From the IMG/VR virus record IMGVR_UViG_3300037244_000020, positions 1 through 64,000 of that record: a DNA stretch of 64,000 bases. The stretch is one strand, 5' to 3'. Source of the DNA: a virus. The translations under genes were made by a program, and so were the position numbers. The notes beneath the pieces were generated by a model. It had not been told where the DNA came from. It ran no database searches and was given only the letters and a program-made list of their open reading frames with translations. Position 1 is the stretch's first letter. Each line of letters opens with the position of its first letter. Below are positions 9,149 to 52,590 of the stretch, piece after piece.

Positions 9149-10168
9149 TTACTGCCAGGGGGCGCGCCCTTGGCACATACTGATAAACATCTCGGTCTGG
9201 TTTCTTTCGCACGCAGCGGTAGCGGCGCTCCGCGCTGCTGCCTTAGCATGCCAATCCCTCCCCGATTTCAGGCTATTAACCGCGCGTATGGCGCAGTCCA
9301 GAATCACGTGGTGTAGCTTCCAGTAACTAGGGTTTTTGGACTGTAACTCGGCAGTTGCGTTGTACGCAGCAACCGCAGCGTCCGCGTCCCCAGACACTGC
9401 CCAAGCGTCCGCCGCAGCTTTGGCAGGTGCGTCGTCCCTTTGTAGGTCTCCCGCTGTCACCCCCAAGACAGCGTCCATAGCTGCTTTGTAGGTCCTCCCA
9501 TAACGAGGGTGCATGGGGACGCAACCTGTAACTGGCGTGGTTGCCTCGCTCCAATTTAACCCTTCGGAGGCTTCCCATTCCGCCGACGCTGCTGCTTCGA
9601 CCGCGCCCCTAGCACCCCAAACTGCAGACTGCACGGCCCCCCATCCAGGACCGAACTCGTCCCACCTTGTGAATTCAGAAAACCCTGAAGCGCTAACTGC
9701 GGCCTCCGCAGCCATTGCTGCGAGTTGCCTTGCTATCGCCGACTCCCGTTGCTCTTCACTCTCGTCTCCTCGGCACCCCTCAGATTCCGCAGATTTGCGC
9801 GCGTCTGCTGCAGATGTCGCCACTTCTTCTTTCGTAGCGTTCCCCATGGCGTAACGTTCCGCCAAGACCACCGCCCGCTTGCTGCGAGGGTCTGCCATCA
9901 GGTGCTGTACTTGCCGCGCCGCCCACGCAGCGAACATCCTGGCGTCCCTTCCGCAGTCTGGGACGAACCGAAGAGCGTAAACTGCGTCATCGACGCCGTT
10001 CTTGACAGCTAGGTCGGCCAGGCGGATAGGCGCGCCGTTCAGGTACTTGGTTACATAGCATCCGCGTTCCTCGACTCCCTCATCAAGTAGGGGGTTCCAC
10101 AGCATTTCTACGACTCTGTCGCGATCTGCGCCGTAGAGTTTGGAGAGGGAGAACTCGTAGCAGGCCAT
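9149..10168 (-). CDS. Ala-rich helical phage protein (Imm5-like RxFAxWxARQV domain)
   Basis: ARMFAAWAARQVQHLMADPRSKRAVVLAERYA motif; AAGGAG RBS. Confidence 0.65.
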   Translation of the reverse strand: MACYEFSLSKLYGADRDRVVEMLWNPLLDEGVEERGCYVTKYLNGAPIRLADLAVKNGVDDAVYALRFVPDCGRDARMFAAWAARQVQHLMADPRSKRAVVLAERYAMGNATKEEVATSAADARKSAESEGCRGDESEEQRESAIARQLAAMAAEAAVSASGFSEFTRWDEFGPGWGAVQSAVWGARGAVEAAASAEWEASEGLNWSEATTPVTGCVPMHPRYGRTYKAAMDAVLGVTAGDLQRDDAPAKAAADAWAVSGDADAAVAAYNATAELQSKNPSYWKLHHVILDCAIRAVNSLKSGRDWHAKAAARSAATAACERNQTEMFISMCQGRAPWQ

Positions 10169-38472: not shown

Positions 38473-38910
38473 ATGTCCCGCGTCCCTCCCAGAAGCTGGA
38501 ACGAAACGTTCGGCACAGCCTACGAGCACCTCAAAGCTGGCCGACGTGCAGCGCGCCTTGGCTGGAACAGCAACCGGGTGTGGCTCGAAGCCCTAAGCGA
38601 TACCGCGACCGTCATCCTGCATAAGGACGGCGTGCGCACCGACTGGGTGCCGGATGCGGGCGATCTCATCAGCAACGATTGGCATGTCTTCCCACCCCTT
38701 GAAAGGAGCTTAACCATGACCACCACGCCTAGCAGAGAAGCCCGCGAAGTAGCAGCAAGCCGCCTTAGTCCCGCCAGCTACGCGAACGTCGACGACTATA
38801 TCGCGGCCGTCGACAAGCTCGCTCGGTATATCGAGCATGGCAACTTTAAGGACACCGACAACCAGCCACACGTCACCGCAGCAGTCACGAATGTGATGAA
38901 TGTTCGGTAA
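38473..38910 (+). CDS. DUF2829 / Tad2-like protein with C-terminal extension
   Basis: TFGTAYEHLKAGRRAARLGWN...WVPDAGDLISNDW. Confidence 0.75.
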   Translation: MSRVPPRSWNETFGTAYEHLKAGRRAARLGWNSNRVWLEALSDTATVILHKDGVRTDWVPDAGDLISNDWHVFPPLERSLTMTTTPSREAREVAASRLSPASYANVDDYIAAVDKLARYIEHGNFKDTDNQPHVTAAVTNVMNVR

Positions 38911-38973: not shown

Positions 38974-39022
38974 CACGTCTAGGGTCATTCCCGAAAAGCT
39001 GGCTATCCACCGGCCTGACGTG
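38974..39022 (+). ncRNA. cloverleaf leader RNA (C4-antisense-like), copy 2
   Basis: CACGTC/GACGTG closing stem; GTCATTCCCGA complementary to TCGGGAATGAC over the ATG; TATCCAC complementary to GTGGATA. Confidence 0.6.
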
Positions 39023-39055
39023 TCTCCTCAGTGGATATCGATTGGGAAATCGGGA

Positions 39056-39907
39056 ATGACAGACCAGACAAACTGGCCCAAACGCGGTGACGGCATTTGT
39101 GGCATCTACGCGATTGAAAATCTCATCGACGGGAAGTTCTACGTCGGGCAGTCTGCGGACATGAGATCAAGGTGGGACGTTCACCTTTATATGCTCAGAA
39201 AAGGAACGGCGAGCACGAAATTGTTGCGCGCATGGCGAAAGCACGGTGCGGAGAATTTCAGGTTCTTTGCCGTGGAAGAATGCTCAGTCGAAGATCTTAC
39301 AGCGCGAGAGCAAGCGTGGATCGACACGTTCGACGCTGTGAAGAAGGGCTACAATATCAGTCCCTTGGCGAATTGCACGCGCGGGGTGAAGCACACGGCC
39401 GAGGCCCGCGCTAACATGTCAAAGGCGCAACTTGAGATAAACTCACGCCCCGGCGCAAAGGAGCGACGAGTAGCTGTGGCAACGAAGGCTTGGGAAGACC
39501 CGGATGCTTTAGCCCGAAAGAGCGCGGCCAGCAAGAAATCAAGGAACAAGCCAGAGGCAAAGGCCAGGCAATCCAAGGTATCAAAGGACCAGTGGGCAGA
39601 CCCGGAAGGCAGGGAGCGTCGTCTGGATGCCTTAGTAAAGTGGTGGGCAGACCCTGACGCGAAAGCTAGTAGGCTAATGCTCCTGCAGAGTGGACGCACC
39701 CCAGAGGTAGAGGCGCAAAGGAAGGAGGCCGCAAAGGCAGCGAGGAGAGCCAGTGCGATCCTCGCTGTGGAAGACGTCTTGGAGATCCGCGCCAGATACG
39801 TATTCCGATGTCCGGCAAATGGAGGGAAAGCACTCGCAAAGGAGTTCGGAGTGTCCAACACGTACATCAGCAACATTATCGTGCGAAAGGTTTGGAAGGA
39901 CATCTAA
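39056..39907 (+). CDS. free-standing GIY-YIG homing endonuclease
   Basis: GIYAIENLIDGKFYVGQS..RW..H..REQAWID..GYN; NUMOD3-like KHTAEARANMSKA; C-terminal HTH. Confidence 0.9.
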   Translation: MTDQTNWPKRGDGICGIYAIENLIDGKFYVGQSADMRSRWDVHLYMLRKGTASTKLLRAWRKHGAENFRFFAVEECSVEDLTAREQAWIDTFDAVKKGYNISPLANCTRGVKHTAEARANMSKAQLEINSRPGAKERRVAVATKAWEDPDALARKSAASKKSRNKPEAKARQSKVSKDQWADPEGRERRLDALVKWWADPDAKASRLMLLQSGRTPEVEAQRKEAAKAARRASAILAVEDVLEIRARYVFRCPANGGKALAKEFGVSNTYISNIIVRKVWKDI

Positions 39908-39947
39908 TGCTACAATGCGGGAAATTAAGCTACAAAGGCTCCCCGCA

Positions 39948-41420
39948 ATGAATTTGAGTCTTCATCAACGCCAATCAGAAGCTTTCACTTCGAAAGCGAC
40001 GGAGATTTTGTATGGGGGCGGGTGGTGCCTCTGCTAGAAGGTTTGGCAGAGGCACCACCCGCCTTCTTCAATGAGCGCCGCAGGCGGAGGCAAGTCCCAT
40101 TTGCTTCGCGTAGCGTCGATCGCATGGTGTGCCGACATTCCGGGCATCCAAATAGCCCTGTTCCGCAGGCTCAGTGACGACATCACGAAGAACCATTTAA
40201 CTGGGGTTTCCGGGTATCCCGAGCTTCTGGCCGACTGGGTGAAGGCAGGGCATGTGAAAATCAATTTTTCGGCCCGTACAATAACTTTTTGGAACGGGTC
40301 GAAGATCCATCTTTGTCACTGCCAGTACGAGTCCGACGTATCGAAGTATCAGGGAGCAGAGTTCCAAGTTGAAATGTTTGACGAGGGAACCCACTTCTCC
40401 GAGACCATCTACAGGTACCTGCGAGGGCGGCTGCGCATGGGCGCACTGAAACTCCCGGAAAAGTATGTTGGGATGTTTCCCCGGATTTTGATAGGGTCGA
40501 ATCCTGGATCGGTCGGGCATGCCTGGGTCAAAGCGTCTTTCGTTGACATGGCGCCCCCGATGGAACTGGTGCAAATGCCGAAAAACGAAGGGGGTCTCAT
40601 TCGGCAGTTCATACCCGCGAAACTGGAAGACAACCCGACGTTGATGGAAAGCGATCCGATGTATGCGGATCGCTTGGAGGGTCTCGGTCGACCTGAACTC
40701 GTCAAAGCCCTTCGTGACGGGGACTGGAACATAGTTGCAGGGGGTATGTTCGACGACGTGTTCTCTACTAAGCACCAAGTTCTTGCCCCCTTCGAGATTC
40801 CTCGCACCTGGAGGATCGACAGGTCATTTGATTGGGGTTCAGGAAAACCCTTCGCGGTGTTGTGGTTCGCCGAGTCAGACGGGTCGTCCGTTCGCCTTGC
40901 AGACGGCTCCGAGCGTAACTTCCCACGAGGGTCGATCTTCCAGATCTCTGAGTGGTATGGCAGTAACGGCAAACCCAATGAGGGTCTGCGCATGATGAAT
41001 GCGGAAATTGCACGCGGCGTGAAGGAGCGCGATTTAGCTATGAAGCGCATCGTCCATGCTGGCCCCGGCGACAACTCGATAAATGACGTAATCAACGGCA
41101 CGAGCATTGCAGACGAGATGGCGCGTGCGCCGAATTACATCCGCTGGACGCCATCTGACAAGAACCCAGGCAGCCGGAAGCACGGGTGGGACATCCTGCG
41201 AAAGCTGCTGAAGAACGCAATTGATAGGCCGCTGGAAGAGCCGGGTTTCTACATTTTCGACACCTGTCGAAACACGATCCGTACGCTTCCGGTCTTACCT
41301 CGCCACGCCACCAAAGACGGGGATCTTGACTCCGACGCGGAAGACCATATTGCAGATGCAATTCGCTACCGTGTCTCCGCCAAAAAACGCACGATGACCG
41401 TCAGCGGCCTCGCTATATAA
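39948..41420 (+). CDS. terL: terminase large subunit, interrupted at Walker A by a 57-nt in-frame insert containing TAG (40035-40037)
   Basis: 39948 frame gives ..EAFTSKATEILYGG; same frame resumes AAGGGKS; FDEGTHF Walker B, GSNPG, DWG and EDHIADAIRY nuclease motifs. Confidence 0.88.
40020..40076 (+). other. 57-nt intervening sequence (candidate ribosomal bypass element)
   Basis: 18-bp perfect stem 40017-40034/40046-40063, TAG in loop, GCG at both junctions. Confidence 0.75.
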
Positions 41421-41444
41421 TCGCGGAAAATCACAGGACGAAAC

Positions 41445-42998
41445 ATGACCGTCAACTTCACTGCGACGACCCCTGAGGGGTTTCCGCCACCAGTCCAACA
41501 ACTGATTCAAGGCAATGCTAACGACGTGCGCGAACCAAGCCGCGTCGTGCAGAACATGATGGTCAACTGGCTCAAGGTCACGACGTTGCTCGGCGGCACC
41601 AAGGCGATGCGGGAGGCTGCGACCATCTTCCTCCCCAAGTGGCGCCGGGAAGAGCCGAATGACTACGCGCTGCGCCTGAAGACGACGGTGTTGTTCAACT
41701 GCTTCGGCCATACGGTAGACGGCCTAGGCGGCAAGCCTTTCGTGCGGCCGCTGGGCTGGTCGACGGATATGTCTCCAGAGGTTGAGGCGTGGTTCCCCAA
41801 CATCGACCTGACGGGTCGCAGCTTTCACGTCTTCGCGCAGGAAGTCTTCAAGTTCTCACTTGCCTACGGCCTGTCGCATGTGCTGATTGACTATCCGGTG
41901 ACTGCGGGGAAGGTGCGTACCGTCGCTGATGAAAAAGCGATCGGCGCCCGCCCCTACCTAGTCCACGTCAAGGCCAACCAGATTCTCGGCTGGCGCTCGA
42001 CGATGAAAAATGGCGGCGAAGTGCTGACGCAAGTTCGCATCCTTGAGACCTGCGAAGTGGAAGATGGCCCGTTTGCCACGCGAACCGTCGAGCAGGTCCG
42101 CGTGTTGGAGCCGGGAACGTGGACGACCTACCGGCTAAAGCCCAAGCAGGCGCTTGTCACTCAGATCAGCCCGTCATCCAATGATCCGCAAGAGTGGGCG
42201 GTGTTCGATAGCGGCACCACGTCGCTCGACTACATCCCGCTCATCACTTTTTACGCACGCCGTACAGGTTTCATGACGGCGGACTCGCCGCTAATCGACA
42301 TCGCGGACCTGAATATCCTGCACTGGCAGGTCGGGTCAGACATGTATTCGGTGCTGCACACCGCGAGCGTGCCGATTTTGACGATCACCGGCGTCGAAGG
42401 CAATGACGATGGCGAAGCGACTCTGGAAATCGGCACGGCGTCGGCGCTGAAGTTACCACAGGGCGCAACGGCACGCTTTACAGAGCACAGCGGGAAGGCT
42501 GTCGGGTCGGCGCTGACCGCACTCGGCACGATGGAAGAGCAGATGCGTCTGCTCGGTGCCGAGTTGCTTGTGAAGAAGCCGGGGCAGGCGACCGCGACGC
42601 AGGCTACGCTCGACACGAGCCAGCAGCGGTCGGAACTCCAGGCTATCACTAGCGTATTCGAGGATACGTTGGATCAGATCGTCGGGGTCATGGCGGCATG
42701 GGGCAATATCCAGAACTTCACGGGCAACATGCAGGTCTATGACGACTTCCTGCTCGCGGCCGACGACGCGGTGCAAGAAGCGCTGCTATTCTCGATCGTG
42801 ACGGCAGGTCTGCTCTCGCCGCAGTCGTTCTTTGAAGCCATGCAGCGGCGTAACGTGTATGACACTGACATGACTTGGGAGCAAGAGCAGGAGCGTATCA
42901 AGGCGCAGCCGCTGCCAGCGCCGTCCCTGCTGCAACCGAAGGTGGCAGGCATTCCGAAGGTGGCGTCAAGTTCTACTTTGGCGCAGTTGAGTGATTGA
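41445..42998 (+). CDS. portal protein (DUF4055-like)
   Basis: LLGGTKAMREAA..LPKW..E..Y..RL; IPLITFY; PLIDIADLNILHWQ; follows terL. Confidence 0.88.
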   Translation: MTVNFTATTPEGFPPPVQQLIQGNANDVREPSRVVQNMMVNWLKVTTLLGGTKAMREAATIFLPKWRREEPNDYALRLKTTVLFNCFGHTVDGLGGKPFVRPLGWSTDMSPEVEAWFPNIDLTGRSFHVFAQEVFKFSLAYGLSHVLIDYPVTAGKVRTVADEKAIGARPYLVHVKANQILGWRSTMKNGGEVLTQVRILETCEVEDGPFATRTVEQVRVLEPGTWTTYRLKPKQALVTQISPSSNDPQEWAVFDSGTTSLDYIPLITFYARRTGFMTADSPLIDIADLNILHWQVGSDMYSVLHTASVPILTITGVEGNDDGEATLEIGTASALKLPQGATARFTEHSGKAVGSALTALGTMEEQMRLLGAELLVKKPGQATATQATLDTSQQRSELQAITSVFEDTLDQIVGVMAAWGNIQNFTGNMQVYDDFLLAADDAVQEALLFSIVTAGLLSPQSFFEAMQRRNVYDTDMTWEQEQERIKAQPLPAPSLLQPKVAGIPKVASSSTLAQLSD

Positions 42999-44906: not shown

Positions 44907-46058
44907 TTGACCACTGTGGCAAATACACTGACCGGGCTTCTCCCGACTCTTTATGAATCGCTGGATATCGTTTCGCGAGAGCAGGTCGGGTTCATCCCGT
45001 CTGTCGCGATGGACGCGAGCGCCGAACGTGCAGCGGTGGGTCAACAGATCCTCGTTCCGATCACGCCGGCGTCGCAGTCCTACGCCGTCACGCCGGGTGT
45101 GACCGCACCGAACACGGGGGATCAGATCATCGGTAACACGCCGATCACGATCTCGGCGTCCAACGCAGTGGCGATTCGCTGGAACGGTGAAGAACAGCGC
45201 GGCATCAACACTGGCCCAGGCTACACGAACATCAAGAACAACCAGATCGTGCAGGCGATGCGCACGCTGTGCAATGGCATCGAACTGCTGGTTGCGCAGA
45301 CGGCCTACCTCGGTGCGTCGCGGGCAAGCGGCACTGCAGGCGCTACGCCGTTCGCGTCGGATCTGTCGGCAACCGCCAATTCGCGCAAGATTCTGGCGGA
45401 TAACGGCGCACCGCTGTCGGACATCCATCTGACGATGAACACGACCGCTGGCGCGAAAATGCGCACGCTGACGCAATTGACGAAGGCGAATGAAGCAGCC
45501 GACGACACGATGCTGCGTCAAGGTGTACTGCTCGACGTCCATGGCTTCGAGATCCGTGAATCGGCACAGATCCAGTCGACGACCAAGGGCACGGGTGCTA
45601 GTTACGTGACCAACGGTGCGGCGGTAGTCGGCCAGACTGTGATCCCTCTGATTACGGGTACGGGCACGATTGTTGCTGGTGATGTCGTAACTTTCGCAGG
45701 GGATCCGAACCTCTACGTGGTGGCGGCGGGCGGCGGCATTGCTGCTCCGGGGTCTATCACGATCAACAAGCCGGGTCTTCTGACGAATGTTTCCGGCAGT
45801 ACCGCCGTTACGGTTGGAGGCTCGTATACGCCGAACTTGGCCTATCACCGAAATTCAATCGCGTTGGTCACGCGCAGCCCCGCGCTCCCCATCGAAGGGG
45901 ATATGGCGGTGGACCGGGTGACGATCATCGACCCGCGCAGCGGCTTGGCATTCGATGTTGCGCAATATTTACAATATCGTCAGGTGTTGACGGAAATCTC
46001 GATTGCGTACGGCGTGGCTGTCATAAAGCCAGAACATGTGACGACGCTTTTGGGCTAG
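44907..46058 (+). CDS. major capsid protein (P22 coat-like)
   Basis: ANTLTGLLPTLYESLDIVSREQVGFIP..AYGVAVIKPEH; TTG start with AGAGGA. Confidence 0.9.
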   Translation: MTTVANTLTGLLPTLYESLDIVSREQVGFIPSVAMDASAERAAVGQQILVPITPASQSYAVTPGVTAPNTGDQIIGNTPITISASNAVAIRWNGEEQRGINTGPGYTNIKNNQIVQAMRTLCNGIELLVAQTAYLGASRASGTAGATPFASDLSATANSRKILADNGAPLSDIHLTMNTTAGAKMRTLTQLTKANEAADDTMLRQGVLLDVHGFEIRESAQIQSTTKGTGASYVTNGAAVVGQTVIPLITGTGTIVAGDVVTFAGDPNLYVVAAGGGIAAPGSITINKPGLLTNVSGSTAVTVGGSYTPNLAYHRNSIALVTRSPALPIEGDMAVDRVTIIDPRSGLAFDVAQYLQYRQVLTEISIAYGVAVIKPEHVTTLLG

Positions 46059-46214: not shown

Positions 46215-47051
46215 GTGAACTACCAGAAGCATTACGATACGCTGATCGATCGCGCCCGAAACCGTAAGCTTTCAGGGTATAAGGAACGCCATCACGTCAT
46301 CCCTCGCTGTATGGGCGGGAGCGATGACAAGTCAAATCTTGTGGAGTTGCTGGCGGAAGAGCATTTCGTGGGCCATCTTCTGTTGGCGCGCATCCACCCG
46401 GAAAACAGAAAGTTGGTGTTCGCTGCGAACATGATGCTGATGAACAGCCCGATGCATCATGGCGCTCGATCCAGGAACAAGAGGCATGCGTGGCTTAGAA
46501 AGGCACACGCCGAGGCAGCAAGAGCTACGCATCTAGGAGTTCCAAAGTCCCCTGAACACGTCGCCAAGGTAAGCCGGGCATTGACGGGTAAGCCAGGAAC
46601 GCGGCGAGGGGCGGTCACTGCGGAGGAAACCAAGGCGAAGCAGTCCGCAGCAGCCTTCGCTAGACCTGACAAGGCTGAAAATGACGAGAAGATGCGGGAA
46701 GGCTACGCAAGGATGACGCCACAGGAGCGTACGGCGCAGGCGGGTAAGGCATGGGATACAAAGCGCGCCAACGGGAAAGATAGGGACACGCCAGAGACGA
46801 GGGCCAAGAAAAGCACGGCGGGCAGGGAGCGCTCTCAGAGAGAAACCTCAGAGGAGAAAACCGCCCGAGCTTTGAAGGCTGCAGAGTCACGCCGCCGTAA
46901 CGGAAGTGACAAAGCTACGCCTGAATCCCGAGAGCGTATGCGCCAAGCCCATCTCGGGAAGAAACAATCCTTGGAAACCGTCGCCAAACGTAAAGCCACT
47001 ATAGCACGCAATAAAGCGCTCAAGGCTGTTACAATGCCGGAAAACACCTGA
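46215..47051 (+). CDS. HNH homing endonuclease with NUMOD3-like repeats
   Basis: ERHHVIPRCMGGSDDKSNLVELLAEEHFVGHLLL. Confidence 0.9.
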   Translation: MNYQKHYDTLIDRARNRKLSGYKERHHVIPRCMGGSDDKSNLVELLAEEHFVGHLLLARIHPENRKLVFAANMMLMNSPMHHGARSRNKRHAWLRKAHAEAARATHLGVPKSPEHVAKVSRALTGKPGTRRGAVTAEETKAKQSAAAFARPDKAENDEKMREGYARMTPQERTAQAGKAWDTKRANGKDRDTPETRAKKSTAGRERSQRETSEEKTARALKAAESRRRNGSDKATPESRERMRQAHLGKKQSLETVAKRKATIARNKALKAVTMPENT

Positions 47052-52246: not shown

Positions 52247-52590
52247 TCAAAGCCACCGTTCAGCATTGCGAGGCTGAATTCAGGCTCGCAAAACTGGGGC
52301 CGGACGGGGTACCGAAGCGTACGCATCTTGAAGCGGTCATGAGCCAGACAGGGAAGTTGCCCAAAGAACTGGCTAGTATCCCGAAGATGCCGAACGAGAT
52401 GGTGTACCTGTTCGAATGGTTTTGCGAGCTTGACATGGCGAGGGGCGGCAACGGGTTCGGCATCAACCCGCTGGGCTTCACAGAGATCAGCGCGTGGGCG
52501 CAACTCACACGCAATTGCCCTCAGCCGTGGGAGATCGAGGTTCTGAGACGGCTCGACGCTGTTAGAATCCGGGTAGCGAACGAAAAATAG
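52231..52590 (+). CDS. tail assembly chaperone -1 frameshift extension (gpGT analogue)
   Basis: T TTT TTG heptamer 52231-52237; -1 frame open into the 52339-52590 ORF. Confidence 0.78.
   Translation, partial: FFETLIKATVQHCEAEFRLAKLGPDGVPKRTHLEAVMSQTGKLPKELASIPKMPNEMVYLFEWFCELDMARGGNGFGINPLGFTEISAWAQLTRNCPQPWEIEVLRRLDAVRIRVANEK

Follow-up and report, generated by a model that had tools for sequence, protein, structure and literature searches.

Efficient long-range ribosomal bypassing has, to our knowledge, one well-studied bacterial example, namely gene 60 of phage T4 together with its homologues among topoisomerase genes. Here we describe a 57-nt hairpin gap that interrupts the large-terminase gene (terL), inside the codons of the ATP-binding P-loop, in the IMG/VR virus record IMGVR_UViG_3300037244_000020. 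The window, by which we mean the whole stretch of DNA analysed, is the first 64 kb of this 90,837-bp record, which comes from a phage of peat soil. A sequence-only reading of the window had put the gap forward as a candidate ribosomal-bypass element, and as a candidate it stands: it fits the comparative data assembled in this study, which comprise a homologue in a diverged phage, analogous gaps in five other lineages, the selection acting on the two flanking exons, and linkage to endonuclease genes. The element would be a non-homologous relative in kind of the gene-60 gap, located within the ATP-binding loop of an essential packaging motor.

In T4 gene 60, as outlined where the original work is cited, a 50-nt coding gap is associated with a MobA homing-endonuclease cassette (Huang 1988; Bonocora 2011, cited in PMC10732093 and 10.1101/2022.08.31.505936), and both replacement and loss of the endonuclease are known for this cassette (10.1101/2022.08.31.505936). 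The terL locus resembles gene 60 in that an in-frame stop stands within a gap about 50 nt long, with a stem-loop at a glycine take-off codon, and in the position of the gap within an invariant motif of an essential gene. A free-standing endonuclease gene likewise lies not far upstream of the gap, the 5' coding flank is an imported patch, and some carriers have exchanged the endonuclease (GIY-YIG or HNH) or have none. It differs in that the host gene is terL and not a topoisomerase gene, and in its hairpin of 18-25 bp as compared to the small tetraloop stem of gene 60. Furthermore the stop falls five codons past take-off, the AGC landing triplet is non-cognate, and there is no mini Shine-Dalgarno (SD) sequence 5-6 nt before the landing. 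With 24 residues made before take-off, a nascent-peptide signal of the gene-60 type is unlikely. That the mechanism would depart from the gene-60 rules had been anticipated in the sequence-only reading, and the unmatched landing codon and the distant stop agree with this. The architecture and the evolutionary behaviour being the same, and three defining sequence rules being departed from, the element would, by analogy, work like the gene-60 system rather than be a member of it.

Candidate translational bypassing inside a phage large-terminase gene has also been described for the Streptomyces phage phiHau3, which has 10-nt UUA-led gaps (PMC10732093). The phiHau3 case, like the present one, is argued from conservation of the junction. 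Its gaps, however, are of 7-10 nt, have a rare UUA codon as the trigger, and lie outside Walker A with neither a long hairpin in the gap nor an endonuclease link; mass spectrometry in E. coli gives them partial support, whereas the element in the window is known from sequence alone. The byp elements of Magnusiomyces capitatus mitochondria, which Lang reportedly described in 2014, are said to be mobile, G+C-rich hairpin inserts of 27-55 nt that interrupt conserved coding sequence. Mobility, G+C-rich hairpins and the tolerance of deviations from exact matching between take-off and landing are shared with the terL element; byps, unlike it, are mitochondrial, are present in many copies per genome, have no endonuclease partner, and have at take-off a codon that is either unassigned or a stop. 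Weiss reportedly found, in 1987, short hops of the ribosome past a stop flanked by matched codons; these bridge distances ten times shorter than the gap in the window, in which the codons are unmatched. Inteins are known in the terminase P-loop (PMC5050341) and occupy the same Walker A hot spot of terL as selfish homing elements that leave the host protein intact, as the present insert presumably does. Inteins are translated and then removed as protein, whereas the insert in the window has 57 nt, includes a stop, and encodes no domain. In a full-text literature search no paper was found that describes a hairpin gap within the P-loop of a terminase.

The interrupted terL gene and its hairpin

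The terL reading frame of the window is split, as the sequence-only reading had described, and the features of the locus are listed below in window coordinates.

39020..39907, + strand: GIY-YIG homing-endonuclease gene, 295 aa (PF01541, E 1.8e-11), directly upstream of terL
39908..39947, + strand: conserved leader, from the endonuclease stop to the terL start, with TACAAT in it; 84-89% identical to its counterpart in the related locus L183
39948..40019, + strand: terL exon 1, 24 codons; Q-motif helix and strand beta-1, ending in LYGG
40014..40066, + strand: hairpin; 18 perfect pairs (40017-40034 with 40046-40063), or 25 pairs with G-U
40017..40019, + strand: proposed take-off codon GGC (Gly24), the last codon common to intact homologues; opens the perfect stem
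40020..40076, + strand: coding gap (insert), 57 nt; its boundaries can slide 2 nt to the left or 1 nt to the right
40035..40037, + strand: in-frame stop TAG, in the upper stem of the hairpin
40071..40073, + strand: ATG of a 449-aa open reading frame (ORF) that ends at 41420; the gene-caller start; product MSAAGGGKS...
40074..40076, + strand: proposed near-cognate landing triplet AGC, the last codon of the gap
40077..41420, + strand: terL exon 2, from AAGGGKS to a TAA stop

From the ATG at 39948 the frame gives 24 terL codons to LYGG, then GWCLC, then the TAG; thirteen codons past the TAG the same frame reads AAGGGKSH and is open from there to 41420. Deletion of 40020-40076, with GCG at both junctions, restores LYGGAAGGGKS, each letter of which is invariant in all 37 intact homologues (467-500 aa; 55-82% identity). 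The anatomy given by the sequence-only reading, with a take-off GGC at 40017, an unmatched AGC at 40074 and a stop five codons past the take-off, was found to be correct. Exon 1 matches the N-terminus of intact large terminases residue for residue (M.LSLH.RQ.EAF.S.ATE.LYGG) and retains all residues that are invariant in the 37 homologues, including Q9, Y22, G23 and G24. Exon 2, which has 70% identity to residues 24-470 of intact 471-aa homologues, keeps its invariant residues too and has no other lesion across 449 codons. The gene product is a large terminase, with an ASCE ATPase and a nuclease: it matches PF03237, Walker A and the Q motif are present, and an AlphaFold2 (AF2) model of the intact homologue P0002 (predicted local distance difference test, pLDDT, 84.6) has a fold that matches those of the D6E, Sf6, T4 and HK97 terminases. 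In this model the residues encoded by exon 1 form a helix (7-13, the Q motif) and a strand (19-24, beta-1) that leads straight into the P-loop.

The hairpin has a fold energy of -56 kcal/mol (z = -7.1; none of 200 shuffles folds as well), its inverted repeat is unique within the 90.8-kb genome, and it includes the proposed take-off codon. It did not score as an intrinsic terminator, and an Rfam search of the gap gave sub-threshold microRNA-hairpin matches and no match to a catalytic RNA. A group I or group II intron or a known ribozyme is ruled out by the 57-nt length together with this Rfam result, in line with the earlier judgement that the insert is too short for either intron type. An intein is ruled out as well, the insert being of 19 codons, containing TAG, and giving no Pfam match to a Hint domain. 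Reassignment of TAG, which the sequence-only reading had already discounted, was rejected, and so was suppression: TAG is an ordinary stop in this phage, ending the coat gene, absent from the interior of long genes, and accompanied by no tRNA in the window.

IMG/VR classes the whole record as one with direct terminal repeats, CheckV estimates its completeness at 100%, and there is only one terL in the whole genome. The region 39000-41500 is present within a single contig, with no differences, in two peat metagenome runs (X1 and X2, at depths of 63 and 164), which may themselves be the source samples; two soil runs (X3 and X4) contain identical short pieces only, outside the gap, and no RNA run was found to contain the locus.

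Related gaps, endonuclease genes and mobility

A homologous element was found at the same terL site in a diverged phage (L183), in a copy of 54 nt. The two TerL proteins are about 60-68% identical. At the nucleotide level the two loci are 84-89% identical between the endonuclease stop and the end of the hairpin, and ~60% identical beyond, downstream of the gap. The hairpins are identical at 41 of 43 bases, and the change of the take-off codon from GGC to GGT is compensated by a G to A change in its stem partner, such that GGC...GCC becomes GGT...ACC. Exon 1 has six synonymous and two non-synonymous codon changes between the two phages. The two alanine codons past the gap (GCC GCA in the window versus GCG GCC in L183) have changed only synonymously, and decoding would therefore resume at or before 40077. 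These substitutions point to purifying selection on both exons across ~40% nucleotide divergence. At the position of ATG 40071 L183 has ACG, and there is no ATG, GTG or TTG in that phage between the stop and Walker A, which argues against an enzyme made in two pieces.

Alignment of terL from relatives with and without the insert, a check proposed in the sequence-only reading, was carried out on about 150 terL loci from IMG/VR and JGI with a readable 5' end. In 130 of these the gene is contiguous through the P-loop and the insert is absent; all of the exceptions are confined to the same ten codons. Besides the two homologous gaps of the window and L183 (type A), there are four carriers of an unrelated hairpin gap of 42 nt located between GGG and KS, 15 nt downstream of the gap site of the window (type B; L005, which equals L006, L055, L009 and L144). 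In L009 the type B gap is 41 nt, which places the two exons in different frames, and none of the type B gaps has a start codon able to yield a C-terminal piece that retains the Walker lysine; read-through or re-initiation therefore cannot explain the type B gaps. Their stems are paired in 43 of 43 alignment cells with a single two-sided change, and GGAGG stands 7-9 nt before the last gap codon. Landing on a GGA or GGG of the 3' arm was tried for type B and rejected, since it is out of frame in L055 and L009. The L009 record is also estimated to be 100% complete and likewise has only an interrupted terL.

All six long gaps retain a stop in the 0 frame, and the take-off codon is a glycine codon in every gap. 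The gap closes with the codon AGC in the window, L183, L005 and L055, with AGT in L009 and with GAC in L144, and never with GGY; each of these is one G-to-A change from the GGY take-off, a class of roughly 6 in 64 per independent draw. Two unrelated phages have much smaller gaps (type C), of 9 nt in L013 (865-925; GGC TAG TTA GGC GGA AAA) and of 6 nt in L048 (2960-3020; GGT TAA GGC GGG AAA). Both have matched glycine codons with a stop directly past the first, fit the rules for short hops exactly, and are such that a hop restores AAGGGKS exactly. Full-length downstream terL ORFs are retained in six lineages.

The same motif is also occupied by larger insertions. Intein-like inserts ending in ...PTHN immediately before the S, and thus between K and S of Walker A, are present in L051, L057, L058, L210, L248, L348 and L349, and in L283 and L351 a second intein lies deeper in terL. 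The terL P-loop is a hot spot that selfish elements share. Several close homologues in the protein database are called from just after Walker A, at 405-451 aa, and these shortened calls (P0004, P0005, P0007, P0010, P0013, P0020, P0023 and P0029) are likely further gap carriers. The N-termini of the P0005 and P0013 calls read VGPRGRHQTGGKSH... and MGGKSH..., which suggests that there are other types of gap, perhaps with matched glycine codons, past which decoding resumes before GGKS. Other searches added no carriers. Single-protein IMG/VR scans with the TerL and with the GIY-YIG protein of the window found nothing, an IMG/VR scan with P0029 returned intact or intein-bearing genes only, and scans of JGI metagenomes and GTDB genomes gave inteins and no new mini-gaps. 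A generic hairpin pattern search gave mostly unrelated terminator-like hairpins, and two junction-pattern matches (L355 and L356) were dismissed as chance matches outside terL.

The GIY-YIG gene of the window ends 112 nt before the gap. L183 has at the same position an HNH_3 gene (E 4.7e-13) that is unrelated to it, and L055 and L144 have GIY-YIG-like genes upstream of terL, a pair 75% identical to one another and ~1 bit under the Pfam threshold. No endonuclease gene was found upstream of terL in L005/6 or L009, so that an endonuclease gene, either GIY-YIG or HNH, lies directly upstream of terL in four of the six long-gap loci. A Pfam scan covered 88 upstream ORFs, of which three came from the long-gap loci L005, L009 and L055, the choice of upstream ORF being rough. 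The 85 from loci without a long gap contained no endonuclease domain, and the sole endonuclease domain among the 88 was that of L055 itself. L183 also has, at 9315-9581 on the minus strand and ~2.4 kb upstream of its HNH-terL junction, a stretch with 33% identity to the N-terminal portion of the window's GIY-YIG protein.

Nucleotide identities along the gene are uneven. L055 and its close, intact relative L007 are 85-95% identical downstream of the gap and only ~70% identical in exon 1, and the same holds for L005 compared to the intact L067. The window and L183 have the reverse pattern, with a similar 5' patch and a downstream terL at ~60%. A quick TerL tree places intact relatives in between the type B carriers. 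Ahead of the gap, the four type B loci all use one synonymous string of codons, GCT GGG GGA GGT, and the 15 most frequent choices among 112 distinct intact P-loop sequences do not include it. The identity contrasts in leader and exon 1, the interleaved tree and the common codon string together indicate that a patch consisting of leader, exon 1 and gap, with or without the endonuclease gene, moves between phages, the 5' end of terL having been imported. The putative element is linked to a homing-endonuclease gene and, on these comparisons, appears to move as a cassette, as has been described for mobA and gene 60 (10.1101/2022.08.31.505936).

How the gap might be decoded

On the comparative evidence, expression of terL needs an exact skip of the gap, and the gene itself is presumably needed, since this is the only terL copy in a record with terminal repeats and an estimated completeness of 100%. 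Our preferred reading, to which we give about an even chance, is that the hairpin gap is a mobile cassette of the gene-60/MobA kind, and that translational bypassing, with take-off at GGC and landing on the near-cognate AGC, decodes it. The cassette would consist of the endonuclease gene, the leader, the recoded 5' end of terL and the gap, and would have invaded the most conserved terL DNA, the codons of the P-loop. By analogy with T4 mobA and gene 60, the gap probably disrupts the endonuclease's own target and might thereby render the carrier immune to cleavage. Ribosomes with peptidyl-tRNA-Gly would leave GGC at 40017-19 as the hairpin blocks them or refolds, skip 57 nt, re-pair on AGC at 40074-76 and resume decoding at GCC 40077, which would yield LYGGAAGGGKS and a junction peptide ATEILYGGAAGGGK. 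Ribosomes that instead read on into the gap would stop at the TAG and release a 29-aa peptide. Re-pairing in the P site is reported to tolerate mismatches, more so with SD help (10.1101/2022.08.31.505936), and each of the last gap codons AGC, AGT and GAC could pair with tRNA-Gly(GCC) through one A-C mismatch. In type B the GGAGG, at an initiation-like spacing, could place the last gap triplet in the P site. We favour hopping because the type C gaps fit the classic rules, the take-offs are glycine codons, the last gap codons are GGY-like, the stops are retained, and type B has its GGAGG.

Beyond this we tentatively suggest that the element represents a long-range programmed bypass that evolved independently, with a long hairpin at a glycine codon, a jump of 54-57 nt (41-42 in type B), a near-cognate landing by A-C mismatch and no take-off stop. 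It might then be one of several unrelated, endonuclease-borne coding-gap cassettes that compete with inteins for the terL P-loop; we would place this somewhat short of an even chance.

A number of observations weigh against decoding by bypassing. The codons for take-off and landing do not match in the window (GGC 40017 versus AGC 40074). Neither a stop nor a hungry codon stands directly 3' of the take-off, the next codon being GGG, which at 20 per 1000 in the genes of this phage is not evidently rare. No SD-like element is located in the window within a few nucleotides 5' of the landing, the nearest GAGG being 21 nt before AGC. The spacer between hairpin and landing has 7 nt in the window and 4 nt in L183, and the ATG at 40071 does exist in the phage of the window. 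Covariation gives thin support, with one compensatory pair each in type A and type B, and a covariation test on the four type B sequences did not exceed shuffles. The pattern of landing codons itself rests on few independent events, with two type A and four type B sequences. Finally, the first cognate GGC past the hairpin, at 40083, would be a competing landing site, which would leave the P-loop three residues short.

Alternative take-off and landing sites were considered and rejected. With a landing on GGC 40083 (GGT to GGT in L183) the product would read LYGGGGKS, in which a loop otherwise invariant in length lacks three residues; the two alanine codons would also be left untranslated, though these vary only synonymously. 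For a take-off at the codon before the stop there is no matching landing triplet.

Alternatively, the gap might be removed from the RNA, either as a mini-intron or as a processing-and-ligation substrate that an activity of host or phage excises from the mRNA at the hairpin, with normal translation thereafter. This would accommodate the required exact skip, a gap length that need not be a multiple of three (41 nt in L009) and the hairpin being the best-conserved part of the gap, and for it the unmatched landing codon and the absent take-off stop pose no problem. We nevertheless regard it as unlikely: a group I or II intron would have to be far larger than the gap, the Rfam search gave no real match, a search for a phage RtcB or RNA ligase found none, and if RNA were removed there would be no reason for the 0-frame stops to be retained, for the last gap codon to be GGY-like or for GGAGG to stand at an initiation-like spacing. 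RNase III needs stems longer than the 10-12 bp of type B, and the 6- and 9-nt gaps of L048 and L013 resemble ribosomal hops rather than introns. The gene might also be split at the protein level, with termination at the TAG, re-initiation at ATG 40071, and either assembly of the 29-aa peptide and the 449-aa protein into an active ATPase or activity of the long piece by itself. Phage genes split by an endonuclease can function as two chains, as do T4 gp39/gp60 and Aeh1 NrdA (preprint 10.1101/2022.08.31.505936), the ATG is in frame and only 33 nt past the stop, and gene callers do annotate the 449-aa ORF. However, no SD sequence was found in the 20 nt upstream of this ATG, which has no equivalent start codon in L183, and type B gaps cannot start a piece that keeps the Walker lysine. 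In addition exon 1 holds the invariant Q9, Y22, G23 and G24, consists of the Q-motif helix and a buried strand running straight into the P-loop, and has no added association tails beyond GWCLC. The split gene is thus rather improbable in our estimation, and with it the complementation between the two pieces that the sequence-only reading had offered as one of its routes.

It is also conceivable that the insert has inactivated terL, in which case the phage would be defective, recently killed by a selfish element, or packaged by a helper. All sequences are metagenomic with no isolate known, homing elements can be deleterious, and no such gaps occur in 80 prophage relatives from GTDB. A dead or dispensable gene is, however, difficult to reconcile with the high depth in both peat samples, with a record that has terminal repeats and is estimated to be complete, with 449 codons free of other lesions, with the purifying selection on both exons, and with the full-length downstream ORFs kept in six lineages, and we give it little weight. 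The prospect that seems to us scarcely credible is an artefact of assembly, or heterogeneity at the DNA level with most genomes lacking the insert. Palindromes can arise as artefacts, and contigs may hide minority variants, but the sequence is identical in two runs, the diverged copy in L183 comes from an unrelated sample and has its own substitutions and a 3-nt indel, and related gaps are present in five other contigs.

If hopping does take place at these sites, the variants of 57, 54, 42, 41, 9 and 6 nt within the same ten codons would constitute a ready-made mutational series for asking which bypass rules (codon matching, an A-site stop, SD, a hairpin) are universal, and selfish elements would be able to colonise the most conserved phage DNA without being inteins or introns. 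Should the gaps indeed form an independent class of bypass, selfish DNA in phage core genes would have arrived repeatedly at gene-60-like decoding, under rules looser than those of T4. At a practical level, gene callers shorten these terL genes to 405-451 aa, which leaves the phages mis-annotated and at risk of being scored as defective.

Genome context

The other features of the window that were considered are the following.

38473-38910, + strand: Tad2-like (anti-Thoeris) gene (PF11195, E 1.4e-11), two genes upstream of terL
44907-46058, + strand: P22-type coat gene, with TAG as its stop
52339-52590, + strand: 83-aa ORF that ends in TAG, just before a 1211-aa gene

On the 3' side terL is followed by a portal gene (DUF4055), a Mu-F-like gene and the P22-type coat gene. 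The sequence-only reading had the major capsid protein gene end at 52590, which was mistaken: this position closes the 83-aa ORF, and the coat gene is the one at 44907-46058. NUMOD3 is a DNA-binding module of homing endonucleases, and a NUMOD3 motif, below threshold at E 0.0012, is present in a 278-aa ORF at 46215-47051 on the plus strand, directly after the P22-type coat gene. This ORF may be a second free-standing endonuclease gene adjoining another core gene.

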